Assembly: GCA_008632985.1 (NCBI GenBank)
Contig: QPGO01000026.1
Location: 310,001 to 374,000, forward strand
Source: Psammoneis japonica
Lineage: Eukaryota
Direction: 5' to 3'
Length of the DNA stretch: 64,000 bases
The notes below the pieces were generated by a model. That model saw only the letters and a program-made list of their open reading frames with translations, was not told the origin of the DNA and searched no databases. Made by a program: the position numbers and the translations under genes. This document shows positions 5,346-61,469 of this stretch, piece after piece (the first letter of the stretch is position 1; every line of letters begins with the position of its first letter).

Positions 5346-5665
5346 AATCGTTTTGGAAAATAGTGCGACGTGGTACAACGTCGGCCAGTTTGTGTCGTGT
5401 GGCCATTTGCATTCCTTGTCGTCGTTCATCGCTGACATCGCCCAAAAAGTGAGCCATCGCCCAAAATGGCTTGTATTTCCGTTTGGCGATGAGTGTGCGA
5501 GAGGCGGTATGGTACAGTATGACATTTCCCTTAAGACTAAATATTTAATTATTCAAGAGTAAATAGAGATTGATAATGGAATACTTTAATGAAATAACTT
5601 AAACTATGGATACATGTAAAGTAGCAGAATTTTTGTCCACTTACTCGCGCGCGGGGGTGCCACAT

Positions 5666-8177: not shown

Positions 8178-8188
8178 ATGAGGTTGCC

Positions 8189-11249: not shown

Positions 11250-11410
11250 CAAAGGTGAGACATGATGTGGATGACAAGGGTGCCAGCAGCAACAGTTTCA
11301 GCAACAAGTGGCACGGTGCACTGCAGTGCACTCAAGCCCATGGAGGCACCATCATCTTTGTGTGAATTTGTGATGCATTGTGTCATGTGATTGGATGAAA
11401 CATTCAAGGC
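11250..11410 (+). repeat. ~150 bp dispersed repeat, copy 1 (copy 2 at 25832-25980)
   Basis: Both copies share CAAAGGTGA..CATGATG..GACAAGGGTGCCAGCA..CAACAAGTGGCAC..CTCAAGCCC..GGAGGCACCA..GGATGAAAC..TTCAAGG. Confidence 0.75.
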
Positions 11411-20100: not shown

Positions 20101-21998
20101 GAGTCTTGTCCAGTGGAGGTTTCTACACTCGAGGACGGACGATGGCGATTTGAAATTCCGCGTACATCACTCACACCTCCATCAATTCCGGATGCACCAG
20201 ACTCCTTTTTCGAGAGCCTGCAACGATTGGAACTTTGGGAGTCTACATTGTTTGATGCTTTGGAACTGCATGTGTCCTCTCAAGTGTTGGTTCAACACTT
20301 TCTTTCGTCAACTCTTGCTGCAGGCAGTGACGGCTCTGTGCGTGAGGGAGCCACGTTCGGCTGGACGATTGCCTTGAACAGCATGTGCTGGCCCTGTGTT
20401 CGGGAAGAAACCTTCCTCGTATCGCGCGGAAGCCCACGGCATTCTTTCAATCGCTCGGTTCATTTGCCGATTGTGTGAACATTGTCGGATTTCTGCTCCA
20501 TTGGACGCGGTGATTCACTGTGATGACAAAGCTTTGGTCAAATGCCCATCTCGGTTGACATCCACTCCACCTGTGATCGACCCAGGAGACGAAGCACACA
20601 CCACACATGATTTTCACATTCGGCATCACGGCGCCAATGCCACATCCTCAGACTGGGATGTCTTGAACGAAATTCTTTACACCCAGCGAACGTTGAAGCT
20701 GCTCTCGGAGTCGACGGACATGACTCTTCCCACAGTTTCTTGGGTGAAAGGACATCAAGACAGGCACACTCCAGTTCACACCTTGCCCTTAAATGCAAGA
20801 GTCAACATCTGGGCGGATGGATTGGCAGGATCACATCAAGGCCACTGCCTGTGCGACACCGATCAAGTCAAGCATCTTCCTCATTGCCATTCTCATTTCG
20901 AGACAGAGGGCGGCACGGTGACTTCCAATTACAAGAAACAAATCAGATGCGCTGCCACAGCTCCCCCACTGCTGGAGCACATCGTCGAACGTAACCAATG
21001 GACCAATGCGGTGATCGAGCAAGTTGACTGGAATGCACACGCAATCCCAGTGAAACGCCATTCAAAGCAGCACGTGAACACGGTCAAATTGGTTCACGAT
21101 TTGCTGCCCACGAATGAAATCGTCCACAGATGTAACCCGGCACGTCCCCACCAGTGCATTGCGTGTGATCATCCAATGGAAGACAGGGATCACATTCTAC
21201 GATGCCCCAACAACGAGCAGTGGAGGAGGAAGTTTTTACAAGGATTGCGCCGCTGTTGTGATGAGGTGGACACCATGCCTGTCCCATGTGACTTTCTTCT
21301 GGATGTGTCACAGGCTTGGTTTAACGAGGAAATCACTTGTCTTGCGGATGTGGATTACAGACTCAAAGAGTTGTGGAAAGCCCAGACTGACATTGGCTGG
21401 AGACAGATTTTTAACGGTCGACATTCGTTTGTGTGGAACCTGCTGCAATCCGGCCACCTTCATGATTCAGGCATCTTGAGGCAATGTCAAGAAGAGAACA
21501 AGCAGCCACCGGATTGGACCGTCCAGGTCGGATCATGCACATGGAGAAGTTGGTGGGAACTGTGGGAGGAACATGACAAGCTCGTCCATGGGCACGACGT
21601 GGAATCTCGTAAGTCTTCCCAGCGGCGAAGGGCAGAGGCCGAATTGACTGCGATTTACAACAAACGTCAGGAGCATTTGGTGAAAGATGGAGGCGCACTG
21701 CTTGACTCGGTCGAGGAACACCGTACATTTTCGACGACGAGGATTCAAAATTGGATTTCAGTGGCACGACCACGCCTCCAAGACAGCTTGAAAGAAGCCA
21801 AACGCCCAGCCAAACGTGGTGCTCGCACCATTCGTAGCTACTTCCGTTGGGCGCCCCCTGCTGGGGGCGCCGGGTCAGGCCAATTGCACACAATTTCTGC
21901 CGCATCCTTTTAGGGTGCACTGGAAGTGTGGGTCAGCCGGCGCCAGTGTTGCTGGGCAAAGGTGCGGTGGCACTTAAAAATTAGAGTTTGGTTTTTTT
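14167..21998 (+). mobile_element. Full-length (~7.8 kb) degenerate non-LTR retrotransposon: ORF1 + ORF2 with APE endonuclease, RT, RNase H and C-terminal CCHC (Ambal-like architecture)
   Basis: A 14 bp TSD, TGTTCAATCACCCC, lies at 14153-14166 and 21999-22012. APE motifs: GDFN, RGSRWLDF, SDHR. RT motifs: IFKEPG, CCDR, GTGQGSGNSP, GHVDD, KTLG. RNase H motifs: SDGSV, SYRAEAHG, WVKGHQD, NIWADGLA. CCHC: CIACDHPMEDRDHILRC. In-frame TGA stops occur at 16587, 17187 and 18201, plus frameshifts. Confidence 0.9.
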
Positions 21999-22977
21999 TG
22001 TTCAATCACCCCATTCTGCGTACAACTTGACACCCATGGATGGAAAGACGCACTTTGAAGGTCACTCTAAAAAGCATGGAGGAGAGCTTTGGGTTCACGA
22101 TCCATCGAGTCACACAATGGAAATGACAAAGGACATCAATCCTGGTTTCCGCAGTTCAGCTCTAGGAGATCTGACGCCCATGGATGGAAAGCTCCACTTC
22201 AGTGCCAATGATGGAACGCATGGATCTGAGCTCTGGGTTCACAATCCACTGACTCAGACAACGGAAATGGCAAAGGACATCCATCCCGGGGTTGTTGGTT
22301 CGAATCCACGAGATTTTACTCCACTGGATGGAAAGCTGCACTTTGCTGCTCAGGATGAAAGGGGAAATCAGCATGCACGCAAACTTTTTGCATTGGAGTT
22401 GTCGCAGGAGGACAGTGACGGTGACGGTGACGGTGTGTCGGATGTCAATGACAACTGCCCCTTGGCACCCAATGCCAAACAGGCGGATGGCGACGGGGAC
22501 GGCGTCGGCGATGCTTGCGACACGTGTCCTTCGGCATCGAACCCGGACCAGTTGGATGTTGCACAGGTTGTCAGCTCCAGACCCATGGGTCGGGTGAGGG
22601 TTCGTTCATTGCCAAGAAACAAGTTTTCTTGTCACTCCAACTTGAAAAGAAAAGGAGTGGAAACAACCGCTTCGAGACTTGCTTCAAAAATCATCGTGGG
22701 GGACTGCAATCACAATGTTGTTGCAGATGCTCTCCGAACCGAAGGCATTGAGCCAGAGTTGAATCGTGTCGTGAAAGTGAGTGGCAAAGGCGAGTTCGAG
22801 GACACGGGTTTGGCGGGTGGTAAGATGCAGCTGGCCAAAAAGGATGGAAAGTGGGTGTTCAAAGTTGCAAATCTGAAAACACTGGGCGGGGTTGGTTGTC
22901 ATGTGGCGGAATTCAAGACATGTCGACCAAATGGTGGAGAGCCCGTGCATGCAAGTTCCCCATTTTGTCTGATCTGA
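21999..22977 (+). pseudogene. ELWxxDGT-like repeat gene, 3' part with thrombospondin type-3 Ca-binding repeats
   Basis: Three more repeats, then [40 protein letters not shown]. Confidence 0.75.
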
Positions 22978-24954
22978 TTCGTTCGGAGGTGCGGAAGAAG
23001 TCAGTCACACACGCTTGACGAAAAACAGGCAGATCTTTTTTGGTGAGATTTTCGTGCATTTTGCTTGCACTGCATTGATGTCTCTAGCAGAGCAGATTAC
23101 GTGAGACGCTCGTAGATCACAATGTTGATGCCCCGCACCACTCAACAACAACAACTTGATCTGAGAGAGTGCTGTCATCCAAAAATGTGCTCGCAAAGCA
23201 CACATGATTGATGCAAGGATCAAATCTGACAGGGAGCGACTCCCTCATGACATTCTTTCTCAATCAAGTGCGCTTTTCTGCGCAAATTGGCATTGAATTT
23301 ACCTGCATGTTTTCAATGCCAGGCTCTCCACAGAACATCCAATGCACCATGGTGTCTCCTCCCATCAATGATGGTGTCCCCACCCTGGGGACTCTGAAAG
23401 CATCATCCGCCAATGCTGATGATGCCACTGTCAAAAACAGTCAACCCCCTCAATGCTGTTCATCTTCAAGCCAAAAGGAATGCCAACATGTGCGCAGTGC
23501 CTCTTGTGTGCACTTCCTGCTCCAACATGCTCTGCTGCTTGGAATCTCACATTTAAGAGCACACAAGGTTGTTGAATGTCATCCCAACAACTTCTGTCCC
23601 AAAAACCAGTTGTCGCAACATTCTGGCAATGAGCAAGAGCACTTCAAGTCCACAAGATCTAAGATTGTGACTGCTCTGCTTGAGAAAGTCCATTCCATTC
23701 CAAAAGATGCGCTCCCATCTGTGCCTTTCCCAGATCACAAGTGCAGGGTGCACACAAAGAAATCTCTGATGCAAGCAAATCCATTGTCACTGCCAGCACC
23801 AAAACAAGCCTTGAGTCCCTGACCTTTGCCAATGCCTCTCTTCCATCCGATGTTGTCAATCCGAACCCCAGCCCTTCCTTGCACTCATTGCAGTGCTGTT
23901 GACACATGTGAAGTCAAGAGATTGCACAAGAGAACAAGGATCAAGGGTCCAACCCAAGCAGCCCAATGTGGGTGGGAGTGGAAAAAAGGGCCTGCAGAGA
24001 GCCCTGTGGCACTGATGCTCTCTGTTCTTGGCAAGAAGGAGATTGCGTCCTTGACTCTGTGGAACTTGCAGCCAACGCACACAAGACCAAGCACTTTTGG
24101 CAAGTTCTGGGAGCCCCCAGAGACAGAATGAACACACTTGTCCAAAAGATCAATCTCCAGCTGATGAGAAGCATTTGAACCTCAAGCAGTGAGCTGGAGG
24201 AAAGAATGAACAGCAGCTGTGCCTTGACAAGACTGACATCAATGACCTGCGCTGCAGGCCACACACTGTTTTTCCCACCTTCAGCATGAGCATGAGTGGG
24301 ATCTGTGGAACCCTCATGAAATTGCAGGACCTTGATCCAACAAAAAAGCAAGAATGATGTGTGCAATGATCTTTTGTTGAGAGACTTGATGGCCACACCC
24401 AACTGAGAAGTGGTGCAGCAGCAACATGGCATTCCTGGGTTTGACTTCAGGGATCACAAACAGCCAAGCAATGGACCAACACTTGGAAGTGACAAGAGCA
24501 ATGCTGAGAGAGAGAAGTGTTGCCGTGCCAAGATGGAGTGTTTTGTGGAGAATGTCCATGGAGTTGCAGGAGCATTCAATGAATTGATTGAGGTCACAGT
24601 GACTGTGGTGAGCATGTGTGTTTGTGCACCTGCAATTTGGTCCTGCTGGATGATGCTGTGAGAGTCCTGAAACAGGTTGCAAAAATTCCAAGAGCTCCAA
24701 ACAGGAGAATGGCGAGCCACAAGATGACAAGGATTCCAAGAAACAAGAGTCACATGAAAGGCAGAACATCATTGCGAGCATCAGAAGCATGTCCGAGCAT
24801 TCAGAACAAGCAGGAAACATGAGAAACCTGGAATTGAGATTGTTGAAGAGAAGAGGTTTTGGATGCTGACATGGCGAATCTTGTGATGCTCGAGAAACAA
24901 ATGTGCGCTCCTCACCAATCTTGCCAACAACCTTCTTTTGTTGATGCATTCCAG

Positions 24955-25148
24955 CTCCAGCAGGTGGGACCTTGCACTGCTGAGCTGTGACATTGACAGT
25001 TTTTTGGATGGTGCCACATGTTGCGCACGTGCACATTTCTGTGTGTGATCTTCTGCGAAATGGTTTCATGCTTCCCATTTTGCAAACCCAAAGGCTTTTT
25101 GTTTTCCACATTTGTGACAATGAAAACAAGCTGGGCACATTCTTCAAC
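24955..25148 (+). repeat. ~190 bp dispersed repeat (second copy 33291-33483)
   Basis: Both copies share CAGGTGGGACCT.GCACTGCTGAGCTGTGACAT..ACAGTTTTTTGGAT...TTTTGCAAA.CCAAAGGCTTT.TGTTTTC.ACATTTGTGA.AATGAAAAC. Confidence 0.75.
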
Positions 25149-25831
25149 ACTGGTTGTTGCCAAAATTGGGCTTCTTGTGGGAGATCAGCCATGACTTTCT
25201 GGGAAAATCCGATGAGTGGCATTCGATGACTGGCTCTGTGGACACATCATCTGCAGTCGACAAGGTGAAAGTCGCGCATGCTTGCAGCCATTGTTTGTGC
25301 TCTTTGTTTTGTTTTTGAAGCAGACAAAGTTTGACCTGTTGCCAAAATTTTATTTTTGGTGAATGCTTGCACTGAGTGCAAAGAATCCGGGGGTCATTTT
25401 TGTGAAAATTGCAAGGCAGCTCCCAAAAAACAGACCGCAGCACGCAAATCCATCCTCAATTGCTGGCATGCTTTTTTGCATGAAATGTGCTGCCATTTTG
25501 TGTGCCATCTTGTAGAATTGGTGCCAGAAACTGCCGTGGCCAGAGACAGCATGTGGTGCTCTGTCACGCCATCTGCGCGGATGATCGCTGGAGCTGGGGC
25601 GCGTCTGTCTCCTCGCTCTTTGGAGTGAATCATCATCTGGGTCTGTTTTTGCACACAAACTGCACTGTGGTCATGTCAAAACAGGTGCCCTGTCACATCA
25701 TTGGATCAAAGTTTGTTGAGAGCTTCAAGGCAGACCACAGCTGCCACAGCAACTGGGACACATGTGACGAGTGGCACAGGAAACCTCAGAGGGCTCTTCC
25801 CCGGGACACACTGGGGGTGTGTCAGCTCAAC

Positions 25832-25980
25832 ACAAAGGTGACATGATGCGGACAAGGGTGCCAGCAACAGTGTCGACAACAAGTGGCACTGTGCATTGCG
25901 ATGTACGGCTCAAGCCCGCGGAGGCACCACCTTTGTGAATTTTTGATCATGTTGTGACTGGATGAAACGACGTTCAAGGT
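25832..25980 (+). repeat. ~150 bp dispersed repeat, copy 2 (less mutated, at domain edge)
   Basis: Matches 11250-11410. It keeps TGTAC and several CpG where copy 1 has TGCAC, TG or CA. Confidence 0.72.
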
Positions 25981-26240
25981 GGTGTCAAGGGTGCTGCGCG
26001 GCAGGCGGCAACAAAAAGATCGCGCAAAGATACGATTTTCGTACGATGGCCGGACCAAAGATATCGTTTCCTTCTCATTTTCATGATTGTTTTATATTAA
26101 AGTTCGTTTAAAATTGAATGATACGAACAGAACCCAGCGATCACCATTGGCATGCTGGCGGGCTCGCCAAAACATCAACGCACACATCAACAACACATGA
26201 TGAAGTACACACAATACCGTTTTTCTGTTGTTGTTCTACC

Positions 26241-30857: not shown

Positions 30858-31399
30858 GATACCCAAGCTACTATTCTTTTTTTCCCTGTGTGGATATTGT
30901 AGCTGCATGTTTAGAAGAATCATCGCCTCTCTTCTCATTCTTCGATTTCTTCTTCGAGCATAAGCAGAAGAAAAAGCGGTGACGTCATCTTGCGACTGTT
31001 ACTTCTGAATAAAATATCTAAAGCCATGAAGGGTTTATCTTCCGTTTGGGAATGTTCGCCATGAGCGGCATCGGATTGACGGGAAGAAACGTCACGAAGG
31101 CTTTGAGAAAAGGACAGTTTGCAGGGAAGATCAGCCCTTAGGTGGTGTTGAAGACCAGTTGGGAGAAAACGTTTGCCACACACGGGACAATCATTTCCGA
31201 CGGCGAAGGGGGCGCCATTGTTCGTGTTGTAAAAACAAGTGAGACAAAAATGAGTGGGACAAACCACATGGTAAAAATGACACGTGGCACGTGACAAGAT
31301 TGTGTTGCATGAATCAACTCACACATGAGTTTGCTTGTTAGACCCAGTTGTCTGGGTCCCCTTGTTGCACAACAGAACAAGAGCCAGGGAAGGCTGATG

Positions 31400-32600
31400 T
31401 GGTGAGAACACTGTGTCATGAGGCTGAATGCACCATTGATTGCACACCTCTCACACTGCCATTGTTCATGCAAAGGCAAATGAGATGGAGCCACTGGCAC
31501 AAAAGAAAAGGTGAGAGCATTGCCGGTGCTCCAGTTGTCGATGTGGGCTGTTGCTCTTGCAGCTTTTTGGCATCATTGTGTTGCTGGATGCCAGACTCAA
31601 CCATCTCCCAGATTGCTGAAACACCATCAGAGCAAGCACAAAACAACAGGTGAGCAAACAGAGTTCTGAGGCTAAATGTGACACATTGATTGGAGCTGCT
31701 GTTCTTCATGACAAGGCAAATGAGGTGGTTGCCATTGGTGCAAATGAAAAGGTGAGAGCATTGTTGGTGCTCCAGTTGTCAATGTGGGCTGTTGCTCCAA
31801 CAGCTCTTTGGCATCATTGTGTTGCTGGATGCCAGACTCAACCATCCCCAATTGCTGAAACGCTGGAGCCAGCACAAAAAAAGGTGAGCAAACAGAGTTC
31901 TGAGGCTGAATGTGACACATTGATTGGATTCACCTCTCACACTGCTGCTGTTCTTCATGACAAGGCAAATGAGGTGGTTGCCATTGGTGCAAATGAAAAG
32001 GTGAGGGCATTGTCGGTGCTCCAGTTGTTGATGTGGACCATTGCTCCAACAGCTCTTTGGTGTCATTGTGTTGCTGGATGCTGGACTCAACCATCCCCAA
32101 TTGCTGAAATGCTGGAGCAAGTGCAAAAAAAAAACAGGTGAGCAAACAGAGTTCTGAGGCTGAATGTGACACATTGACATTGGAGCTGCTGTTCTTCATG
32201 ACAAGGCAAATGAGGTGGCTGCCATTGGTGCAAATGAAAAGGTGAGAGCATTGTTGGTGCTCCAGTTGTAAATGCAGACTGTTGCTCCGACAGCTCTTTG
32301 GCATCATTGTGTTGCTGGATGCCAGACTCAAACATCCCCAATTGCTGAAACGCTGGAGCCAGTGCAAAAAAAAGGCAAGCAAACAGAGTTCTGAGGCTCA
32401 ATGCAACACATTGATTGGATTCACCTCTCACACTGCTGCTGTTCTTCACGACAAGGCAAATGAGGTGGTTGCTGTTGGCACAAATGAAAAGGTGAGAACA
32501 TTGTTGGTGCTCCAGTTGTTGATGTGGACTGTTGCTCTAACAGCTCTTTGGCATCATTGTGTTGCTGGATGCCAGACTCAAACATTGCTGAAATGCTGAA
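31400..32600. repeat. Tandem repeat, ~235-255 bp unit, about five copies
   Basis: AGCAAACAGAGTTCTGAGGCT recurs at 31653, 31887, 32141 and 32378, with a degenerate unit before it. Confidence 0.9.
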
Positions 32601-33290
32601 GAGAGCGCCACTTTAGACAGCAAGATCACATTGTCTTGCAGCCAATTGTGCAATTCATTAGAGACATCTCACACAGTCATTGTTGTTTGCAATGAGAAAG
32701 GCTGATGAGATGATTGCCAATGGCACAAATGAAAAGGTGAGAGTGGTTTTGCATTGAGAAGTTGATCTGATGGCATTCAATGGGTGTCATGCTGGCACTT
32801 CTTGACAGACTCAACCAGCCAACCTCTCTAAACCATTGAATCAATTGCAAACAACAACAGCGAGAATGCATGATGAAGTCATGTGGAGTGTTGGAAACAC
32901 TTCTCACATTGTCTGTTTGCAACAAAGAAAAAGACAACGGAGAACAAATGCACACGTGAAACTGCAACCCTCATCATTGCTGCAGCCAATGAAACAATTG
33001 CTTGCAATTCCCAGGCACAGAACAAAAATTGTCATTTTGGCATGCCTTGTTGCGCTGTCTTGTTCATGCAAGCAAACCAACTGTGTTTGTTTGTTTGTGT
33101 TTGCAGTGCAAGTGCCAGGAGGCTCACTTGATCCATGCCTTGGTCCATCACAAGATGATGGAAAATGTTTTGCTCAAGCGCACTTTTTAAAAAAGCCCAC
33201 TCTTCCCTGCAAAGTGCTGCAGCAACAAGTGTGATGTTGTTTTTGGATCAAGCAGTTGCAAGGTGGGAAAAAGAAAGGCAGTGTGATGGG

Positions 33291-33483
33291 CTCCAGTCCC
33301 AGGTGGGACCTCGCACTGCTGAGCTGTGACATCAACAGTTTTTTGGATCATGTTGCATGTCATGCACGTGCATTTCTGCTCGTGACATTCTGTGAAATTA
33401 TTTCATGCTCCCTGTTTTGCAAAGCCAAAGGCTTTCTGTTTTCAACATTTGTGAGAATGAAAACGCACTGGGTGTGTTCTTCA
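33291..33483 (+). repeat. Second copy of the 24955-25148 repeat
   Basis: Direct visual alignment with 24955-25148. Confidence 0.72.
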
Positions 33484-34285
33484 ATGTCTGCAGAACACAC
33501 CCGGGCAAACTGCCAATGATGCACTCCAAGTGTGACAGAGGAGATGTGTTTGCAAAATTGCCTCTTTTTCTGTTGGCAATCATTTAAATTTTCATTGCTT
33601 GACAAATTTGCTGCTGCGGAGCTTGCGCGCAGAATTCTGCAGGCCACATGTCACACAGAGTCCCGCCTGGGGCTGGAATCCGTTGTGTGTGGGTTTGCAT
33701 GAATGCATTGAATGGTTCTTGCAATTGCATGTTTGCATTGTGTCAGGAGTGTTGTCAAAAGGCCATGTCAGCAGCATCAAACAAACGGAGCCAAAGGACA
33801 ACCCAAAAACAACAACAAAATGCAGTTGTGGGATTGACTCAACCGGCACAGTCAGAGTTCAGTGGGTGTGTCTGTTTGCAGAGTTGATTGAAGCACAGCT
33901 TCTTAAATGAAATTTGTTCAGAGCACTGCGTGGCTTCTTCCAAAAGATGTCACTCAGAGCATCAACAAATTTGTTCAGAGTGGTGCTCTGTTTAAATGGA
34001 GATGCTCAGGCATCCAAACTTTGTTCAGAGTTGTGCAACAATTGGATGGACATGCTGGGGCATCAAAACACATTCAGAGTCATGCTCTGATTGAATGGAC
34101 ACAGTCACAGCAGCACTCTGCATGTCAGCACAATGCTCTAATTTGCAAATTTCAATGCTCTGTGTGCAATGATTCAAACAATTTTCTCAAGCTCCAAGTG
34201 ACCAAATTTACTCTGATTGTGCTCCATGCAGGCGTCATCACCTCAATGAACTCTCATTTGCTTTGAATGTCACACCCGGAGCATG

Positions 34286-35936
34286 CAGTCATTTTCATCA
34301 TCCGCGGAAATTGCGCAACACCCCCCTCCCCAAAATTGCAACTTCCCAATGCAAACTTTTGACCACGCGTTTGCACAGAATTTGTGAAGTCCAAAAAACA
34401 CAAAAAGATGCAGGGTTCCACATGCAAATCCAGCACAAAATGAATGCAAAGCCACCCTCTTCACACCACGGCAAAGCAAGCACAAATTGCCAACAGCTTT
34501 GACCACTTTGTCATTGCTGCGTTCTTCTTTTTGTTGTCCAACTGAACTGTCATCACCATGACATTGCAGACATCTGCATCAACCACTGGTGCTGAGGTTG
34601 AGCAGCCAGAAACAATTGAATTTGCAATGGCTGCAGTTCAACATCCTCAATGGGATCTCAGCACATGCATTCCACACAATGTCTGCAACCTTGGGGCTGT
34701 GATGCTGAGAATCACATTGTCCAAAATGACAAGAGAGTTTGGTTCCTGCTTGTCAAATTCACCAAGCTGAGGCACCACACACTCTGTCAACCATTCCTCA
34801 AGCCATTCTGTGTCAACAGCCCCTCTTGTGGGATCATTGTCATCTTTTCCTTGCTCTTGCAAAACAATGTCACAAGCTTCCAAGACAAAGCCATTGCAGT
34901 TGGCGGCACCCATCAATGTGTGTTGCGTTTCTGCAGCATCAAATGCACAAGCAAGCTCAGCTTTTTTGCCTTTCAATGCCCAGATTTGATGACAACAGGC
35001 GCTCAAGTGGTCTTTTGCTGATTTGTCCAAAAACAAGGCCATCTTCGGGTTGCAAAGCAGGATCTTGAGAGTGTTTTGGCAGTCATCGCGCTCTTCTTGG
35101 CAACGTTGGGCTGCAACTTCTGTGACAACTTTGAGAGAGCAGCGCAATCGCTCTGTCAGAAGTCTCCATGGTTGCACATCTCACACCTGCAATTCTTTTG
35201 CACTCATCCTGCATTTTGTCCAGATGAAACTCAGGGTGATCCTCAACAATGGATCTGATGATGTCAACCTGATGACATTCCCATGAGTGTGCTTCATGCA
35301 TTGTGTCTTGCTTTTGCTCACTCCTTTTCTTCAATCGCCCTTTTCTCCATCGTGTCACTTTGGAAACTTCCCCGAATTGCTGACAATGGAGGTGCCAACA
35401 ACAACGCAAAGTGGTTTTGCTGATCTTTGTGATGCTTGCACCCACCACCTCTTCCAGAATGCAGTCAAGAGGCTTGTCCTCAAACAGCCCAACCCTTGCA
35501 ATCAAATGACCAACTGGTGTCTCTTCCAAATGAAGTTGTCCGAGTGGACTTGCATGATTGCATCCTGCTGCTTCAACTTGAGGAACAAGCTCCAAGAAGA
35601 CAAAGACTGTGATGATCAAGGCAAGAAAGACTTCCAGCAACATCTTTTCGGTTTGCCAACATGGAACGCCATGCACACGACGACGCCCTGCTGCCCACTG
35701 CCATGCAGTGCGAGACGGTTTGCTGCATTTGGTTGCAAAGGTTGCAATGAGATGGACCGCTGCTGTCCAACTTGACAAAGGAAAAATGCACTGGACTTGC
35801 ATGGAATCCTGTGTGTTTTTGTGGTTTTTTGACTTCTTGACATTTGCAGGAGGCTTGCGCAAAAGTTGTGCTTTGGGTGCAGTCGTTTTTTTGGGGGGGT
35901 GTCACGCGATTTTTCCGCAGATGATGAAAATGACTG
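34286..35936 (-). mobile_element. Degenerate IS630/Tc1-mariner DNA transposon with ~150 bp TIRs
   Basis: The ends read CAGTCATTTTCATCATC.GCGGAAA at 34286 and its reverse complement ending at 35936. A minus-strand transposase remnant includes HPEFHLDKMQ, LFLDKS and SLVILDNV. Confidence 0.82.
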
Positions 35937-35976
35937 CAGTGGCAGGTGTCGCATGCCATGTCATGGGTGGGCTCAT

Positions 35977-36500
35977 GGGTTCAGGGGGGAGCTGGGGCTC
36001 CCCAGTTCATTTTGTCTGGCCAGGTGGGTTGTGAGCCACTGGGGCATGCCAAGTGCCACGCACCGCGCCACGCAGCATGGACCACGATGAGCACATGGTG
36101 CACAGTGCAGCACACACAGTGCATGCAAACGAACCGCAATGGCAGATGCCATCCATTGCAAGAAGATGCCATTGAACGAACACACCATGGAGGATGATGC
36201 GCCTGCTGCAGACGAGTCTTTTCTCTCCTGAGGAACTTGTTCAATGAGAATCAAACAAGAGTTCTCAGACAAGATCACACTCTCTCTCCTTCTTGCATGC
36301 AACAAAAGGCCTGTCCAGGTGCCCAGCTAGAGTAGACTGTAGTTTAATGTGTGCAACAGATCGCATGATGATGGTTTAACCTGCACTGTGGGGTGTGATC
36401 CCTCCAGGTTTAACAGGCAGCATGATGACGTATTCCAAAAACTGGGCCCCCGCTTTTTTATCGGGGGGATTCCCCTTTTTATCGCGAAGTGCTCCCCCCC
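35977..36500 (+). mobile_element. Copy B of the 8189-8768 non-autonomous element (outer TIR parts missing)
   Basis: It shares long near-identical blocks, e.g. CACACCATGGAGGATGATGCGCCTGCTGC.GACGAGTCTTTTCTCTCCTGAGGAACTTGTTCA. Confidence 0.85.
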
Positions 36501-36752
36501 AGTCACGGGCCAGCTCCGCATGTCACAAAAAAAAAACAGCAACGTGCTTCGTTTTCCAATTGCATGGTGTACAACCCCTGGGTTTGATCCCTGGCTAGCT
36601 AGCAGGACCCTGACCACCTGCTGTTGCTCGTCTCCATTCATGCGTCATCTCGTTGCTTGGATTGCATCGACTCGTTCGTGTTGAAAGCAATCACACTTGT
36701 AAACAATCCATTCTTGTCATTGTGCGTTGTGCTTCTTTGTTGCATCAGCAGC

Positions 36753-37232
36753 ATGTCACTCGACGATGCCTGCCGCCGTCTCCGGCAAAATGATCCCGCA
36801 TTGACAGAGCTCTGTCTTGGGCCCAACCAAATCGTTGACGATGGTGCAAATTCGCTCGCAACGGCACTCGCAACCAACACCACATTAAAATGGCTCAGTC
36901 TTGATTTCAACCAAATTGGTGACGCCGGTGCAAGAGCGCTCGCAATGGCACTCGAAACCAACACCACATTGGAATGGCTCGGCATTTCTTTCAACCAAAT
37001 TGGTGACGACGGTGCAAGAGCATTGCTGCAAACTCTACAACAACACAATGGGAGTTTGACGTTCTTGAATTTGGACTTCAACTTTGGCCTTTCCGTTAAT
37101 CTGGAAAGCGAAATTCGGGCATTGGTGGAACAAAACAAGAACAAGACTCGAAACCCGCCGCCTCGGCCTAAATTGACTCGTGCGTTGTTGCTTTTTCGGT
37201 TTTACCCCGGGAATGCCAGCGTGATTATGTAA
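36753..37232 (+). CDS. Small RNI-like leucine-rich-repeat protein (NLRC3-type LRRs)
   Basis: RLRQNDPALTELCL followed by 28-aa repeats NTTLxWLxLxxNQIGDxGARALA. The 3' end may be spliced (GT at ~37180 to TAG at ~37288). Confidence 0.8.
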   Translation: MSLDDACRRLRQNDPALTELCLGPNQIVDDGANSLATALATNTTLKWLSLDFNQIGDAGARALAMALETNTTLEWLGISFNQIGDDGARALLQTLQQHNGSLTFLNLDFNFGLSVNLESEIRALVEQNKNKTRNPPPRPKLTRALLLFRFYPGNASVIM

Positions 37233-42885: not shown

Positions 42886-43761
42886 AGAGGTGTCAGCAAT
42901 TGGATAAAAGAGTCTTTCCAACGGCCGAAGCTAAATGCTGCATAAAGCACCACAGCCCTGACTTCCGCGCTCCCTTGACATTCTTCTTCCACTGTTCTGA
43001 TGTCGCTGCAACTGTTCCTTTCACCATGCCTGTCGCATTGTCTTCAAAGGAGTAACAGCACTTAAAAATTGGATTTGCTTTTCTCTGCTTGTGGGTGCGC
43101 CGCGGAGGTTTCCCAGCACGATTGTTCATGTTTAGCATTTTCTTCTTTGTCAAACGAACACAGAAAACAAAGCCTTCGTTCGTGTCAGGAGCACAAGGCA
43201 GATGAACCGCGGCGCATTCTATTTTTCCATGACTGAAGCATTGTGATGGCTCAAGCCAATCATCTGCATCATGTGTTCATCACCATTGAACTTCAACATG
43301 CCCATCACCCATGAGTTTGAAGTTGTGGTGAGAGAAATCCAGAGTTGCACAGCAGGTGCATTGTTGCTTTAGTGTCATCCACACACAATGACAAACAAAA
43401 GCCCAACACATGAAGGCTGTCATGCACTGTTGTTTCCGAGTTCATGGTGATTCATGCACTGGCAAAAGTGCACACTTCAGGTGAAATGTGTTGTCTGCAA
43501 CAGCGCAACAGAGAGCAATGCAGCACATTTTCAGTGCCTGTTTCTGATGGGGTTCTGTTCAAAACAAATTTTGTAGAGCAAGGTCATGACATGGCAGTGT
43601 GCTCACGCAGATTTTTGGCATGGTGTGCAAAGCAATGATTCATGAAAGCAAAGGCCTCACATTCTGTTGCTTGTTGCACGTGCACAAACAACCCTTCAAT
43701 GTTTGTGCTGGAGTCAGCCTGTCATCTCATTAGAGAAATTGGATCATGCTGGTTTCAGAAA

Positions 43762-43938
43762 TTCTTTGAACGAACTAAAAATCAAACGAAAGAGATCCTG
43801 CTCACATGGTTGTGTTGTGCGCAAATTCCGACGATTTGGGCGGAAGATCCAACCAGCCAAACTTGAAGATGACAACGAATGCTTGGATTGGCCGTAGAAT
43901 TCTACAGAGATTTAGTTTTTCGAAACTTCCCTCCGACG
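43762..43938 (+). repeat. ~180 bp direct repeat, copy 2
   Basis: Matches 40704-40888 and locally retains TA and CG. Confidence 0.85.
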
Positions 43939-46900
43939 AGTGCGGCACTCTACAGTGGCAGGCTACAGCACGAGCCGTCACAGGTGGGGCCCTCCTGCAG
44001 CATGACCACAGGCTCAAGTTCAAGAAATGGGCTGGCATGTCGCCTCAACGGAAAAATCTTTAACATCCATGACTTAGGACAATTTTATGTGTGCCGATTT
44101 GCAACCTTTTTCGCGAATGTTTGGTCCGTCATCTGTCCATCAGAACATGGATTTTCGTGACCCTTCAGGCCTTTTTCACCGCGACACAGCACGGCACAAT
44201 GGCGCCGTCACGCCGTCGCGATTTTGAGCACAGTGGAAGGTGGGGCATTGGTCGCCGACGATTGCATTGGTCCCTTTCGATGCTCCAAAGGCTCGAGTGT
44301 GTCATCGGCGACCGATGCCCCGCCTTCCTTTGTTGTGAAAATGCGATCGATGACAAGGTGCACACATCTCTGCGTGATTCAGTGCTCGTCATTTGAATTT
44401 CCAATTTTCTCACACCAACATCATCAACCGTCATCATCGTTCGTGCAGCCATGGCACCCAGCAAGAAAAAGAGCAGCGATGCAGGAAAGAAAAAAGTTGT
44501 TGTCCTGTTGAAAAGAGTTGACAATGCTCTCATTCTTTTGACAGCACACGTCTTGGCAAGCTTTGATGGGAAATGGCCAAACGCAGGAGACATTCACCGT
44601 GTGCTCCAGGTTGGCGGCATTCCAGGCAGAATGGCCCAAGTGATGTGCCGGATTCAATCCAGAAGGGATCTGGATCCAAGGGCTTGGCTTCATTTCGCAG
44701 AATGTCTGATGACAATGAAAGGCACAGCCGTTCAGCAAAATTTGAATCTGATCCCGATGCTCCCGAATCTCAAGCCCACATTCAAATTGAATCATTCAGG
44801 ATTGACTTTTCGGCGTGCTGTGTGGTTCACATGATTCCCTTGTTGCATCCGTTGATGCTCACATTGCACAATCTACCGTGAAGTCATGCAACAGAATGGA
44901 ACAATCTGTTTCATGGCAACAGCGATTGTGGCGGCATTGATTTTTTCAACTGCCATTGCAGTTGGCGACATTGCATCTAGAGTTGCAATTTGCAACATCA
45001 TCACATTCTTTGAAAGCATCCTCTTCTTCAGACAACTCAGCTGCCGGCACCCATGCAGTCGTCATGGCAAAGAAGCAGCTCTCACTTTTTCTTCAGTGTT
45101 GATGGAGGGAGAAAAAAATTCTCAGATTGCACGTAATTTCAGTGCTGAAACACACGCAGAACAGACAGCAAAAAGAAGTGCAGGCCAGCCCATGTTCGCA
45201 AAATGGGACTCACGTGGCGGCCCTTCACACCAGCCTGTTTCTTGAACTTGAGCCCATGGCATGACAGGCCTAAAACGGCAAAGCAAAAACACACACACAC
45301 AAATCACGTGAGTTGCTGTCCATGATCTTGCAAGAGAGAGTGTGGCACAATGCTTCTTCAACACTTGTTGTTTCTGTTGTGCAACTCCTCTGTTCAAAAC
45401 AAATTTAATGAGACACAAGGCAAAAAACGAGGAGAGCCACCAAAAACCTTTTGATTTCTCGCAGCAGCAGCACACGCGGTGCTCTCATGCAATGATTCTT
45501 GGCACAGTGCGCAGAGCAACTTTCATCTCAGCAAATGTTCCATTCTGCACCCCAGGTGCACACTGCACACATGAACAATGGGCTCTGTGTCCTGGAGTCA
45601 GACAGCTTTGTCATCATCTCATTGGCTGGAAGCCACAACTCTTGTCATTGAGCATGTGCCCCCGCGCACTGCCCCATGGGAAACTTGGACCATGCTGGTT
45701 TCAAAAGTCACCAGTGCTGGGTTGATGAGTGGGTGGCTGTGCTCATTGGTGCACACCCAAAGGAAACTTGCACTGTGACTTGTTCCAGGCTTGTTTGGGG
45801 TGGTGTGCACATGCCCACTTCTCTCACAAAAGCAAATGTTTTGTGGTGCGCATCATGCTCACTTGCTTTTGGTCAATTTTTTGCAGCCCAATTTTTTCAA
45901 GAGGTGTCAAGATCAGTTTGGCAAACTGTGCTTTCTGCACACAAGCAACAAAGATGGGCATTGTTGTCCTTGGCCCTTTTCAAAAAAAGATCTCAACCTT
46001 TTGAGACACGACTCTCACTCACATGTTTGTCAATGCAGGCCATCATCTGTGTGCAGCACTGAGACGACAAAGCCAAACCAAGCCAGGTGTTGGCATGATG
46101 CTCTCTTGACAAATGAAAGAAATGGCAATTGTCCTGCTCAAATTTTGGCAAAAAAGAGCAGAAACAGGATCACAATGTGAAGACTCTCTGCCTTGCCAAC
46201 CCAGCATGAGCAACAATGACAGCCAAAGTGACGTGCACGCAAACAACACAGTGCGGTGGTGCGCGCATGACACCCAACTCTTCTACAAAGGCAAGCTTGG
46301 GAGCACATGTCCTTGCAGAAACAAATGTCTTTGAGACTGAACTTTGCAAGTCTCTGCTGACCAAGGCCTCCCCCAATTGCAGCTCTCGTTTCCAACTCAT
46401 CTCAGATGCCCAGCTTCATGGCTTGACTCCAGTTTGCCATGCTCAAGGGTTGGCCATCATTGTTGACACAACCACAAACCTGCAATGCCAGAGACACCAC
46501 AAGTGCTTTGTTGGGATTGTGCCAAGGTTGCTTCTTGACACTGACAACTGGCATTCATTGAAGCACTTTTTGACATCAGCTGTCTGCCCTTGGCCCCCAC
46601 ATGTGTTCCCATGCACACGCTCTTGCACTGATGTTGCCCTTCTTAAATGGCATTTTGCTGGGCCTCCCACAGCCATTCTTGCCATTTTCCGTGCAATGTT
46701 TCCAAGTGGAAAATGACTGGAATTGACTCCTTGTGGTTTGCGTGCTCATTGATCTTTTTCATGATTTTCTGCAGATTTGACAATTTTTCTTCATTGACTC
46801 CAGTGCAACTCCTGCAAGCTTTAGTTTGTCAAATTTCTGAGGTGCTTGCACCCACACCCATCTGTCCTTGAAGCCCTTCTTTGTTCCTGTTGGCCAATCA

Positions 46901-48320
46901 AGGATCGCTTGGTTTGGTGAACACATGGCCTTGGCTGTGGTGCTGATGAGAATGAGTGCAAGTTCTCCTTTGGCGCCACTTCTTGTTGACAATCTTCCAT
47001 TGATTTGGCATGGTTTCTGCATGTGAAAAATGTTTTTGCCAATGGACAACTTGTCACATCATCAAGTGCTTCCATTTCTTGTCTTCCAGTCCTGCTGGAC
47101 AATCCCTCCATTGCTTGCTGGCAAATCAAGCTCCCTGCTCCATGGTGCAGTGATCTTTCTGCCATGGTTGCATTGCTTTGAGGTGTGAAAGTGGCTTCTT
47201 TTTGATGAGCACCAGCCAGTGGTTTGGCAACCACATTTTAATCTCATTTTTTGCTGTTTTTCAACCAACCAAGTTCTGAGTGTGCCTGTTCTTTGCCATT
47301 TTGGCATGGCAGCTGTGTCTCCAGTCCATGTGAAAGCAATGAACTCTGCAAAGTGTCAATTTGTTGTTCCCAGTTGCCCCAGGTGGGCATCAATGCAAGG
47401 TGGCACCAACCTTGGTCAGTCCTTGTCCCCTTCTGTCACACTTGTTTGGCAAGCTAGAAGTGTGGGTCAGCTGGTGCAATGGCATGGCTGGCAAAATGGT
47501 TGGAGCCCCTCTCCATTGCCCTCCAGCAATGTCCTCCAGCCAGCAGGGTCACACTCCTCCCTTTGTTGCAAACAATGACTCCACAGCCCCATCATCCACA
47601 GCATTGGCACACTCCACAGACTTGGAGCATGTGGCAACATCTCTGGAGCTGTTGGAGCTGCCGCCTCTGTCGAGCAACACAAAAACATTCCCCACACACA
47701 GGATCTTGGGTGTGAGGGGCACACAAGGACAGATGACCTTGCACTTCATTGCTGTCTTGGGACAATGGGTCCATGTCTTGACCAACAACACCATGTTCCA
47801 AGCATTGTGCCGTGCATCATGGAGATGCAAATCATGCATTTTAACAACCACAGACAAGTGTGATGCCCTGCATTCCATGCAACAATGACAATCATCAATG
47901 CAAACTGTCATTTGCAGTTGTTGTTGTTTGCTCACTTTTAAAGTTGACACAATGATTGTTCCTGAAAAGCCCCCAATTTGATGGCTCTGTCAAGCAAGTG
48001 AACTCCACAGTGTTCACCTCAAACAGCAATGGAAGAGAATGGATGCTGAAAAGAGTCCCAACAACTGCCACAGCTGTGTCAAAACAAATGCCATGACCCT
48101 CTCAGAGCCACAAGCAATCATGTGTGCAGCACAAGAAGAGAAGTTTGCAACAGCCCTGCTTCCTTGAAGAGCCAAATCTCTCAAGTGAATCTTGCCCTCA
48201 AATCAGATCAAACAATGATCATTTTCAGCACTTGATTGCAACCTTGATGGCATCCATTCCACTTGACTTTGACATTGCTTGTTTGCATTGGCAAGGCTGG
48301 ACAGGCAGGCTGAGCCAACT

Positions 48321-48527
48321 GCCACCATGCAGATGCAACATCAAGCAGAGAACAGACATCTGATGGATGCCACAGTCGGAGAGAGTGCAACCATCCTCCA
48401 ACTGCTTTCTGGCAAAACCCAAATGCTGTGCATCCATGGGGATTCCCTCCACATCCTGAATGCCCAACTTCACATTGCAGATTGTGTTGCTGGGTGCAAC
48501 CGCAAGCTTGGTTGTCTTTCCCATCAA
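48321..48527 (-). pseudogene. Decayed ubiquitin/ubiquitin-like domain
   Basis: [67 protein letters not shown] aligns without gaps to ubiquitin [67 protein letters not shown]. Confidence 0.85.
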
Positions 48528-51500
48528 CTCAAACTGCTGGAACTCTTGGTGACATGAGATGTGATTCTCTTGACAAAAAATTCCTTTTCTGATTGAGACA
48601 AACAGGAACTCTCACTCACTTTGTGGACAAGTGCAGCTGAACAGCATCAGCAAGCCAGTTGTGGTTGCTTCTCTTGGCCCAAAAGAGTGCCGCCGCTGTC
48701 TCAAACTGACCATTTGCAAGCACAGCATGAACAACTCCATGTGCCAATGGAAGAGATTTTCCTGAGATCAGCAAGTGTGCCACATCAATGTTGCTTTCCT
48801 TTGCAATTTTGCCACCCCATCCTTCTCCCCAAAGCACGCTGCAGCATGTGGTGTTGACACACAATTCCACAAATGACAGCCTGCTTTGCTCCCAAAGTGA
48901 TGTGCCAATGCTTGCATCAGACCAACTGACTCCACACCTCTCATTCCACAAATGCACAAATCCAGCAGGCAATCAACAACTCTCAGTCATTCTGGGTTGC
49001 TTTTCTGGCTCACTTTTGTCTTGCAAAAGAGCAACAAGAGTGCACCAATGCTGCATCTCTGATCCCTCCATGATGTCTTCAAAGGCATTTGGACAGCATT
49101 GGTGCAATGCGCTGAGCATGCCTGCCATGCCTCTGTCAGCAACCAGATGCAACAGGCCAAAAGATGTGTTGTTGAGTGACCAATGAGGCTCAGCAACTCA
49201 CCAGGCCACATGCAAATGATTGAGGGACACCGGTTGCTCATGGTCATGCTGACATGAAGCCTGCACAAAGCCTTCCTCATCCACAGGTTGTGCCAAACAG
49301 AAAGCAGTTGACTTTTGCACAATGAAAGGATCTGCTGAGGATGCAAAAAGAAGATGACTGGCAAAACCAATCACTTTCAACAATGCTTGGTGTGCATGTG
49401 ACTTGTCAGCACAATTGTGTTCATGCCAACCAGTGACAAAGGTCAGGCTTGGAAAGAAGAAACCATTGTGGGCCCCACACGCACAAACTTTGTCTGTTCA
49501 AACTTCATCCAATCCCTCCTGGATCATCATGGAGCAATGATGTTTCTGTGGATGTGTTGTTTCTTCACTGTCCTCATCACACCAGGGAAGGTGATGCTCT
49601 GCAATGCAGTGAATGCACAACTTTTTTCTCCCTTGGAAACCATTTGGCTCAGGTGGTCAAACATGATGTTGTGCAAAGTGAAGCACCTTCCAGCCAGCCT
49701 TGCAAGGACACCTGTGCTGACAATCATGCAAACAATCTTTTGAGCCATCAATGGTGGCAGGAGTTGTCAAGCCAGCACAATTCTGGGAGTGTCTCTTTGT
49801 GCAAACAGCACAACTTGTGGGGAGATGCAGCAACAAAGCAACTCAACAAGCTCCATGATGAGGCAAAACAAGACAGGGCAAGTGAGCAAGGTGTGCTGTT
49901 TGACACAGGGTGTGGCAACAACACAGAGGACAAAAACAATGAGAAGAGCAAGAGTGCACCAACATGAAAAGCTGGCAAAGAAGGTGGCAAAAGCACAAAG
50001 GAGAAGACAATGAGGCAGCAGATGCTTTGAGGGCAGACAATCCAGCAAATGAACAGCAGCAATTGGCAAAAAACACTGCACAGCCCTTGGCAAAGAAAGC
50101 AGCACATTGGCAACCATTGACACAAACTGTGTGCACAATGCACTGTGTTGTTTAAATTCATGCACATGACACAATGACAAACACCAACAACAATGACTGC
50201 GGGGGGGGGGGGGGGGGCATGGCAAAAAAATGTTTGCATGTCACAGTTGACAATTTTTTGCCATGTGCAACATGCAGCATCCTGTCACAGCATGAAGAAA
50301 GTTGCCATGAGAAAGGACCCTCAACAACTGTGCAACATGCTCTGATGCATGGCATTGAACTAGATCAGATTTGAGCCTGCCACCACAGCTGCAGCTGCCT
50401 TGGTGTGATCCCATCTTGTTTCCATTGACTGTGGAGAGCAAACCTTGTCATGATGTGCAGATGTTTGATCGGCTCTGGTGACACTAAAGTTGGATGCGCT
50501 GTTGTCCATTCAAGATTTGGCTGCTTGCAAGATGCAGCAATTTGATTTGTGCAGGTGTCAGCACATTTCTGCTGTTTCATTTTGTTCAGCAGAAGTGTGC
50601 AATTTGCTCCAGAGCCAGCAATGTTTTTCACTTTTTCAGGACACAATGATGACACACAAAACTTTGAAAAGAAAATTTCTCCCTCCAACCTGACCAAGAC
50701 TGACAGAAGGCGACAACATCTGGGTGCTGTTGCACATCCAGGCACGTGCACAATCCCGTGCTCATGCAGCTCAAAGCAGAAAGCAGAAAAACAATGAAAG
50801 AAAATGGTGGGTGAACACTGCAAAGGAAAAAAAGAAAAAGCAACAATGGCTGAAGAGAGTTTGAAGATGTGCTGCAGCTGCACCTTGGGGTCAACCTGCC
50901 AAAAATGTGCTTGTTCATGCAGCAGATGTGGCCAACTGTGCACCACTTGTGCTTGCTTTCACAAGTGCAAGAGCAAGAAAGGACTCCATGCTTGTGGCCA
51001 ACACACAGCAGGAACATGGAAAATAAACTGCAAAAACTTCAAACCACCCAGGGGTCCAGTCTGCTGCAGTCAAACATTTCTCAACCCATCAACCACATCC
51101 CAGCACTGAAATCAAACAAGAAAAAAGAAGGCTGTCACCAAAGCCAACAAGGAGAGCATCATGTCTGACAATCAAGCAACTGCCACTGTTGAGGGCAGCA
51201 ATGTTGAGAAGGTTGTTGCTGCCACAAGGTGAGAGAGCAGCTGCAGGATGGAGAGTGCTTGGAGGGAGCCATTGCTCTGCCCAACAACTTCAACTTGGCC
51301 CAGCACAAATCATTTGCAAGATGTTTGGCAAGACCTGTCAGCTGAGTTGAGGTTCTCATGATGGCTGCCCGGTTGTTGGGTCTGTTGGATGCACACCCAG
51401 AGACACAAACTTTGGCACATGCAGACAGTGCTGGATCTCTCTGAGATCCTTTGCTCACTCTTCCCCTCATTTCCATGCTTGTTGCTGCTGTCCTGGCATC

Positions 51501-52340
51501 TTGCTGGATTGATCAGATGCTCCTGTCTGATGTCTCAGCTGGGTGGTGAAATGTCAGACATTGAAAATTTGGCAAAAGCACTGGCGCCGGCCAGTGCCCC
51601 ACCAACCACCACTGCAAATGCTCTGAATGGTTCCACTGGGAAAGACTTGCTGCAATGCAGGCAGAGTTGCTGCATGGAGGCAAAATGCAAAAGTGGAACT
51701 CAGAAAGGTTTGCAGTGCACCAAGTGGCAATTTTGCAGCAGGGTTGCAATGCAAAAGCAGCCAATGACATCAGGATGTTGCTCACCAGGCATGTGGATGA
51801 TTGAGGCACAGACAAGCACAAGATTCTAGCACAGTCAAATGAGCTGCCACCGTTGAAAGCAATCCACTCAAAAAGAGATGCTGGAGCCATGCACCAAGAC
51901 ATTCAACCAAATGGCGCTGCAAGGAAACCCAAGAGGAGCAGCCATGGGCCCATTTCTGAGCACAAAAAAGGTGGAGCACTTTCAACAAAAAGACCAAGAC
52001 ACCAGAAGAAGATCATTTTCACAAGCTCAGTGAGCCAGTGAGCTGCCTCAATGCCAGGGTTTCATTGCAACCAACAGCACTGCAGAGACCCCAGTGCAAA
52101 AACCATCTGGAAGTGCAGCTCAAGGTGGATCTGTGATGATTTGGGCTCGCAGATCCAACTGGTCAATTTTGACAAAATTGAACACAAAAGCAGAGGAGCT
52201 GAGACAAGCTTGTTGGCACATGCTCCAATCACACATGTCAAGACACAAAAGAGAGGGAAATGAATTGTTCCAGACTCAGGTGACCTCGCGCACAAAAAAT
52301 GCCCCCTTTTGCATGAAACGCACTGTCCAAACTTGCTGCA

Positions 52341-58078: not shown

Positions 58079-58305
58079 TGCAAAGACAGGTGTGACAGCA
58101 GCACTTTCTGCTGTCAGCAAAGAGTGTGAGCTGGCTGGACTGCTCAACCCCACACTTCACAGTTCCTTGGCAGTCATTCCAAATCAAGTGCCAGCTTGGG
58201 ACCAACTGCACGTGGCTGGTTGCAATGCAAAGACAGCTGTGACAGCACTTTGTGACAACAAGAGAGTGTGAGCTGGCTGGGCTCCTGACCCCACACTTCA
58301 CAGCC
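58079..58305. repeat. Local duplication of an ~80 bp motif
   Basis: TGCAAAGACAG.TGTGACAGCA...GAGTGTGAGCTGGCTGG...ACCCCACACTTCACAG occurs at about 58080 and 58226. Confidence 0.7.
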
Positions 58306-61446: not shown

Positions 61447-61469
61447 TCTCTCTCTCTCTTGAACCCTGT

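Follow-up and report, generated by a model that had tools for sequence, protein, structure and literature searches.

Kilobase-scale domains nearly devoid of TpA in Psammoneis japonica, with one domain edge inside a copy of a MITE-like transposon

A hypermutation process confined to the dinucleotide TpA has recently been described in Bigelowiella natans. In mutation-accumulation lines, two integrated viral regions together yielded 231 mutations, of which 230 were A>G or T>C changes, all of them at TpA (Mettrop et al., bioRxiv 10.64898/2026.01.13.699255). Their rate was around 1000-fold above background and only some of the lines were affected. The same preprint reports 124 TpA-depleted clusters in 95 Mb, with 5% of 1-kb windows having a Rho_TpA of 0.43 or below, and 324 TpA-depleted predicted coding sequences enriched for endonuclease-reverse transcriptase, reverse transcriptase, DDE and zinc-finger motifs. 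Its authors suggest that an ADAT2-like adenine deaminase, a candidate by sequence and fold likeness only, is responsible (10.64898/2026.01.13.699255). Our literature search retrieved no report of TpA-specific A:T>G:C hypermutation besides this 2026 preprint, which concerns one marine alga. The kind of process is already known, and the stretch of Psammoneis japonica DNA analysed here is a new and much more saturated instance of it.

The window, by which we mean the whole 64-kb stretch that was analysed, contains DNA of two kinds. Some 68% of it is made up of purged DNA, kilobases long and nearly without TA, and a LINE. Four TA-purged domains were delimited. Domain 1 (5952..26030) contains the LINE (13206-22977), which is younger and half purged; domain 2 (31340..36327) has its right edge inside a repeat copy, referred to below as copy B; domain 3 (42950..54650) is the most extreme, with no TA and only 8 CG in 47939-50153; and domain 4 (56976..64000) continues past the end of the window. 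Per 1000 dinucleotides, the gene islands (19.7 kb) have 38.8 TA, 54.0 CG and 149.8 CA+TG at a GC content of 0.465, against 3.4, 17.1 and 224.8 at a GC content of 0.477 in the purged domains (33.9 kb). The corresponding values for the LINE are 9.9, 52.0 and 177.7, with GC 0.511. In the purged domains the combined loss of TA and CG (72.3) matches the gain in CA+TG (75.0), and CA and TG are present there at similar levels (116.4 and 108.4). The observed/expected (o/e) ratio for TA is 0.00-0.10 in TA-free domains and 0.4-1.06 in gene islands, whose non-coding DNA is also TA-rich (0.9-1.06 at 3501-4000 and 5501-6000).

The domain edges are sharp. At the left edge of domain 1 TA occurs every 10 nt or so until 5951, and the next is at 6188; at the right edge of domain 2 there is no TA from 34209 to 36328, and then there are nine within 153 nt. 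The six edges other than the last of these are equally sharp and lie around 70-760 nt from the ends of ORFs. Genes recognised in the window are a La + 3'-5' exonuclease gene (874-3636), a ferroportin gene (29136-30998, minus strand), a leucine-rich-repeat (LRR_6) gene that begins at around 36753 (start part 36753..37232, plus strand), a cNMP/ankyrin gene (38567-39784, minus strand) and a Fic gene (55112-56215, minus strand). The best homologues of the ferroportin are only 43-50% identical, and the protein atlas labels it simply as eukaryotic FPN1. The lone Fic-domain gene forms a 2.3-kb island (54650-56975) of normal composition with a purged domain on either side.

All six gene islands were spared, and the sequences that could be recognised among those hit are the LINE, a terminal inverted repeat (TIR) element, tandem arrays and a pseudogene. 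Since TAA and TAG are nearly absent, the purged DNA (6001-13200, 22900-26000, 31300-36327, 43000-54600 and 57000-64000) is full of long open frames: its 34 kb contain 160 stop-to-stop ORFs that are 90 aa or longer, of which 150 were tested and one, a ubiquitin-like pseudogene, matched Pfam. In practice, gene callers would annotate many false ORFs in TA-free DNA as genes. Short dispersed repeats, 77-87% identical, also occur across the domains (24954-25147 / 33290-33484, 11250-11401 / 25833-25968 and 40752-40888 / 43805-43938). The last pair has one copy in normal and the other in purged DNA, and could be a second before-and-after pair besides the one described next.

That pair consists of two copies, both on the plus strand, of a MITE-like repeat of around 600 nt. 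Copy A (8177..8779), in domain 1, is complete and has no TA. Its TIRs (8189-8223 and 8734-8768) are 35 nt long and 83% complementary, with weaker symmetry out to about 8177 and 8779; at one site the two arms have CA and TG, where the loose ends of other copies have TA. Copy B (35955..36501) is without the right tip and departs from the family after about 36501. The two can be aligned over the whole repeat (8201-8741 with 35968-36501) at 81% identity in 558 columns, and no further copies were found within the window. Elsewhere in the genome the repeat is abundant: in contigs of run X1 the summed depth is around 1000-2000 within 35975-36499 and around 60 outside, approximately 20-30 times the single-copy depth, and the contigs depart from copy B at loose ends 35984/35994 and 36499/36501. 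None of the element's ORFs matches Pfam, and an open frame that crosses copy A on the minus strand (8335-8718) has no match in the protein collection. Rfam and tRNA scans of the window were empty, and thus do not mark the element as a SINE of recognisable tRNA or other RNA origin. Metagenome contigs contained no match to either of two 22-mers taken from it, and viral contigs none to the one 22-mer tried. No clear target-site duplication was seen at copy A, whose ends are blurred, copy B being without its right tip. Since it is short, non-coding and TIR-bearing, has a high summed depth and matches nothing in Pfam, Rfam or the tRNA scan, the element is a multi-copy, non-autonomous, MITE-like TIR transposon family. 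The TA-free DNA adjoining copy A also contains a 66-nt inverted repeat (9215-9280 / 9290-9355), 77% complementary with a 9-nt spacer.

Copy B is divided by the domain edge. Its TA-free part (35984..36325) closes a TA-free run of 2119 nt (34209-36328), of which it makes up the final 342 nt, and its TA-bearing part (36326..36501), which lies in the region upstream of the LRR_6 gene, has a normal level of CA+TG and nine TA, equivalent to 51 per kb, at 36328, 36333, 36340, 36345, 36377, 36411, 36431, 36459 and 36480. The counterpart of the latter part in copy A (8549-8741) has no TA at all, sitting within a 922-nt TA-free run (7954-8876). An earlier note on this DNA had claimed that each TA of copy B is replaced in copy A by CA, in five cases, or TG, in four, so that both strands are hit. 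In a MAFFT alignment seven of the nine sites pair cleanly with CA (four) or TG (three). Sites 36328 and 36459 adjoin gaps and yield CA and TG only with the gap placement of the earlier note, which is reasonable; once that is adopted, the count of five and four is reproduced and the claim holds at all nine. Both strands were hit, since CA and TG outcomes are both present and, as described below, tyrosine codons of the LINE have become codons for both cysteine and histidine. When the 22 observed transitions were shuffled over the 176 aligned columns, at least seven of the nine sites were struck in 53 of 200,000 trials (p = 2.65e-4), a conservative test because the TA transitions are themselves counted among the 22. 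The outcomes along the nine sites (CA CA CA TG TG TG CA TG CA) show no significant same-strand clustering by run count. Reading conversion tracts from the order of CA and TG proved uninformative, the local CA/TG skew being just as uneven in coding DNA. In the part of the repeat purged in both copies, there are four sites at which CA in one copy faces TG in the other.

The polarity of these differences can be questioned, since a TA-free family in which the right part of copy B gained nine TA, by a RIP-like process or by ordinary C>T change at CpA and TpG, would give the same pairing. C>T is the commonest spontaneous change. Other copies of the repeat bear on this question. We examined 154 contigs of run X1 that aligned to copy B with at least 80% likeness, a filter that favours copies similar to copy B; the run may be the window's own source sample and hence not independent. 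Alternative letters below 5% were left out, and the listing covers 40 of 77 rows of alternatives. At 36333 and 36340, where copy B has T, the alternative C accounts for 1246.6 of 1301.2 (96%, 11 contigs) and 1103.7 of 1335.5 (83%, 12 contigs) of the depth, respectively. At 36378 and 36412, where copy B has A, G takes 171.2 of 721.8 (24%, 3 contigs) and 219.8 of 466.4 (47%, 5 contigs). At the remaining site with alternatives, C is seen in place of T at 36459 (213.6 of 1061.5, 4 contigs) and G in place of A at 36460 (713.6 of 1061.5, 67%, 9 contigs), the data not distinguishing whether these are the same contigs or different ones. At 36328, 36345, 36431 and 36480 there is no alternative letter among the matches listed.

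The consensus is therefore mixed. At 36333 and 36340 most of the family has CA, and TG is probably the majority at one site, 36459/36460, all of which would favour a gain of TA in copy B. At the other sites a large share of copies appears still to have TA: four of the nine show no alternative among the matches listed, and at 36378 and 36412 more of the depth has A/T than the alternative. At 36333 the depth remaining for T (54.6, against a single-copy value of 59.8) shows that TA there is private to copy B and that it derives from real reads. The pattern that the earlier note considered fatal to its view, a CA/TG consensus with TA private to copy B, is thus formally present at two of the nine sites, even though polarising with the family left TA standing at several others. 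At 36333 and 36340, the TA may have arisen in copy B alone by C>T change; alternatively, the majority of copies may stem from a master that had already been converted. The consensus is a weak outgroup here, because the process is one-way and most copies are affected by it. A three-state pattern is also seen among the copies. At 36111/2 CA in copy B faces TG in copy A, while two contigs (23% of depth) have T at 36111, and paired differences of CA against TG occur at 36047/8, 36061/2, 36181-4 and 36421/2. Such a pattern needs TA (or CG) as an intermediate.

Composition argues against a gain of TA. The right part of copy B has a TA/AT ratio of 0.75 and a (CA+TG)/(AC+GT) ratio of 1.37, both on the non-RIP side of the usual thresholds (0.89 and 1.03, respectively), in line with the dismissal of a RIP-like gain in the earlier note, and in composition it matches the gene islands. 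The values for copy A are 0 and 1.80. Gain of TA in copy B would, moreover, leave the multi-kilobase domains with a TA o/e of 0.00-0.06, the replacement of conserved tyrosines by cysteine or histidine and the lack of any TA in copy A without an account, and we consider it improbable. The ancestral status that the earlier note gave to TA consequently stands for the process, in view of the abnormal TA-free domains, the tyrosine losses and the B. natans precedent, but it cannot be extended to each site individually given the mixed consensus.

The same contigs bear on the suggestion that the differences are an artefact of sequencing or assembly, for example through miscalled modified bases. Contigs of run X1, which are of short-read type, match copy B with no differences over 35991-36154 and 36472-36620, T at 36333 is present at single-copy depth, and purged genes also have stops, a frameshift and many other substitutions. 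No support for such an artefact was found, and its probability is negligible.

Why the edge should lie inside copy B is a separate matter. The DNA immediately beyond the repeat (36502-37000), which takes in the 5' part of the LRR gene and its likely promoter, has five TA, none of ATA/TAT type, a CA+TG o/e of 1.56 and normal CG, and so is half purged. This makes the TA-bearing 176 nt an island, rather than a simple edge. The island might have arisen by promoter-proximal protection, by a later gene conversion with an unpurged copy as donor, or by rearrangement at the truncated tip. The edge might accordingly be a later junction, formed when a purged and an unpurged copy underwent gene conversion or recombined unequally, instead of a limit of the process. 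The location of the 176 nt between fully purged and half-purged DNA, the lack of the family's right tip, with loose ends behind 36499 and 36501, and the many family copies that could serve as recombination partners are all compatible with a junction. On the other hand, with TA at 36333 private to copy B, there is no donor of this exact sequence among the matches listed, and the six other edges, equally sharp and similarly near to ORF ends, fit a limit set by active genes. A later junction is therefore the less likely origin of this edge, though one to be taken seriously.

The direction of change is best judged from coding sequences. The decayed LINE (13206..22977, plus strand), which has in-frame stops and one frameshift, retains an endonuclease region (16623-17189), an ORF for the reverse transcriptase (RT; 18204-19601), whose YxDD box reads HVDD, and a zf-RVT region (20378-21913), all on the plus strand. 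The RT ORF was compared with 41 homologues of 28-42% identity, among which at least 60% agree in 211 columns. It retains 133 of these. The nine conserved tyrosine columns hold four cysteines, two histidines, two tyrosines and an aspartate. Change to histidine or cysteine has thus affected six of nine tyrosine columns as against 12 of 193 others (Fisher p = 1.5e-5), and conserved histidine and cysteine themselves are kept in five of six and three of three columns, respectively. The ubiquitin-like pseudogene (48321..48527, minus strand) tells the same story when compared with solved ubiquitins: its sole tyrosine, Tyr59, has become cysteine (tgt), and all four of Arg42, Arg54, Arg72 and Arg74 have become histidine or cysteine. 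The tyrosine and arginine losses together indicate that both TAY>TGY/CAY and CGN>CAN/TGN changes occurred here. As a process, a direction from TA to CA or TG, on both strands, is well supported. At the ends of the LINE, 144-nt repeat units that are 63-82% alike are found at 13474-13904 and 22025-22360, and an ORF at 21985-22977 matches thrombospondin type 3 repeats (E = 6.4e-10); a repeat-bearing host gene may have been split by the LINE, or the units may be part of the element.

The presence of a LINE among the affected sequences raises the question of whether the changes came through RNA, by ADAR-like A-to-I editing of repeat transcripts that was fixed through reverse transcription before insertion. 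Because the template for copying a LINE is its sense RNA, editing could yield only A>G on the sense strand. The LINE, however, has two Tyr>His changes, T>C on the sense strand, besides four Tyr>Cys changes, and its sense strand has more CA than TG (96.5 and 81.2 per 1000). ADAR does prefer U before the edited A (10.64898/2026.01.13.699255), in keeping with the TpA context, but in the same source the B. natans changes are made in place in single-copy DNA. In our window the TIR element, tandem arrays, pseudogene and unrecognisable spacer are purged too, in continuous domains, and one edge falls inside a repeat copy. An RNA route is therefore most improbable.

Purged DNA also contains two tandem arrays on the plus strand, one of five units of around 245 nt (31401..32742) and the other of three units of around 460 nt (52337..53741). 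Over all pairs of units, CA against TG is the commonest adjacent double difference (65 and 17 cases, compared with 11 and 4 for the next class), and such pairs make up about a third of all mismatched positions. At five of 24 CA/TG-polymorphic sites another unit has CG, which indicates that old CpG feeds this class besides old TpA. For this reason, namely CG in a third unit at some sites, the idea of taking a CA/TG difference as proof of former TA was dropped.

Loss of TpA and decay of CpG nevertheless appear to be distinct. CG o/e in the purged domains is 0.00-0.35, yet at 6001-8500 and in the LINE CG remains at 0.57-1.19 where the TA o/e is 0.00-0.32. The disappearance of TA where CG remains implies that the two losses are separate, TA loss coming first and being faster. 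The half-purged state of the LINE (TA 9.9 and CG 52 per 1000) is as expected from a progressive in-place process, and CpG decay suggests that the purged DNA is probably CpG-methylated. Stretches where TA is nearly gone with CpG still at o/e 0.57-1.19 are seen at 6001-8500, 14501-15500 and 44001-44500.

Surviving TA dinucleotides are not a random sample. Counted on both strands, the base 3' of the A is T at 7% of 114 sites in purged DNA and 5% of 96 in the LINE, compared with 25% of 765 in normal DNA. Sites containing ATA or TAT number 15 of 114, 9 of 96 and 344 of 765, respectively (Fisher p = 1e-11 for purged DNA and 6e-13 for the LINE), and the survivors are mostly YTAR. Relative to normal DNA, density is 0 for ATAT, 0.01-0.08 for ATAC, ATAG and ATAA, and 0.3-0.67 for CTAA and TTAA, a ranking to be read with the caveat that the purged DNA may have started out with a different composition. 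Loss of ATA/TAT first suggests a flanking-base preference of an enzyme, for which the order of 3' neighbours would be T, then C, then G or A.

The chemistry that we favour is deamination of adenine in 5'-TA-3', the resulting hypoxanthine pairing with C. The primary event might instead be T>C, if the thymine of TpA were modified and then mispaired with G, as it might once a TET/JBP-type enzyme had oxidised it to 5-hydroxymethyl- or 5-formyl-uracil. TpA being self-complementary, T>C on one strand and A>G on the other are indistinguishable from sequence. Moreover, 5-formyluracil causes A:T>G:C changes and 5hmU in dinoflagellates prefers TpA. Even so, we think a thymine route rather unlikely.

Taking these results together, we are fairly confident that the two copies record the conversion of TpA to CpA or TpG in silent domains, acting on a multi-copy transposon of which copy A lies within a domain and copy B across an edge. 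The window alternates between islands of genes, whose composition is ordinary, and silent domains bearing repeats and pseudogenes. In the latter a process at the DNA level would have turned nearly every TpA into CpA or TpG by A:T>G:C transition on either strand, with CpG also decaying to CpA and TpG. Copy A, inside such a domain, would have lost all its TA. Copy B spans the domain edge, around 425 nt upstream of the LRR start codon, with its left 342 nt purged and its right 176 nt still bearing TA, so that the copies would represent one sequence before and after the process. They would differ at TA against CA/TG because copy A sits in silent DNA purged of TA. Conversion was probably in place and aimed at silent, probably 5mC-marked, chromatin, not at repeats as such.

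Tentatively, the window may thus come from a second eukaryote, apparently an intron-poor one, with DNA base editing across whole chromatin domains. Every TpA of silent DNA would be converted to CpA or TpG, ATA/TAT first and independently of CpG decay, with GC content unchanged and the process halting a few hundred bases from active genes. A halt near active genes would, on this tentative reading, imply that chromatin state, and not repetition or viral origin, provides the aim. The window displays the process at saturation together with a matched pair of copies that would show one sequence before and after it. Domain edges that are sharp to around 100 nt beside genes offer an experimental handle, the ranking of flanking bases is a constraint that any candidate enzyme must reproduce, and the link to CpG decay suggests that silent chromatin is where the process is directed. 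Should the enzyme prove to deaminate adenine in DNA, nature would have its own version of the engineered adenine base editors. Erasure of TA would be expected to remove TAA and TAG stops, tyrosine codons, TATA boxes, AATAAA signals and the TA or TTAA targets of some transposons.

The pattern resembles several known systems to different degrees. ADAR and APOBEC footprints are similarly deaminase-type, context-dependent transitions clustered in mobile elements, and ADAR shares the U/T before the edited A. They arise, however, on RNA or pre-integration cDNA, on one strand and in single elements, whereas here whole chromosomal domains are changed on both strands; the changes are not restricted to A>G on a retroelement's transcribed strand, both strands of the LINE being hit and non-retroelement DNA purged. 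Deamination of 5mC is at work in the same domains and feeds the same CA/TG sink, but the resulting CpG decay is separate from, and slower than, the loss of TA.

Fungal RIP is similar in that it defends the genome by mutation, marking repeats with a dinucleotide footprint and disabling their genes. TpA A:T>G:C hypermutation is its mirror image: RIP converts CpA to TpA and makes DNA AT-rich, whereas here the direction is the opposite and GC is unchanged (0.477 in purged DNA against 0.465 in gene islands). The purged DNA, with TA/AT of 0.06 and (CA+TG)/(AC+GT) of 1.96, is accordingly not RIP-like. Duplication seems not to be the trigger either, since the multi-copy element escaped in part and the pseudogene DNA that was hit is single-copy.

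The closest likeness is to the hypermutation of B. natans as the preprint text describes it (10.64898/2026.01.13.699255), which also changes TpA to TpG or CpA on both strands and leaves clustered TpA depletion with a gain in CpA+TpG. In the window such depletion and gain are found in four domains of 5-20 kb, and TA is replaced by CA or TG on either strand, the polarity of the nine paired sites being partly resolved. The enrichment there for endonuclease-reverse transcriptase, reverse transcriptase and zinc-finger motifs is paralleled by our LINE, which carries Exo_endo_phos_2 and zf-RVT. The two differ in extent, around 68% of the window being purged (TA o/e 0.00-0.10) as against a genome-wide tail of 5% in B. 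natans, and in gene structure, the window having long intron-free ORFs (920 and 620 aa) where B. natans has about eight introns per gene (PMC13746701). These differences hint that the window is not from B. natans itself, as does the presence of the stretch in the runs of one study alone. Co-depletion of CpG, a flanking-base preference with faster loss of ATA/TAT, and edges close to genes, one of them within a repeat, are features of the window that do not appear in the abstract, Results or Discussion text of the preprint.
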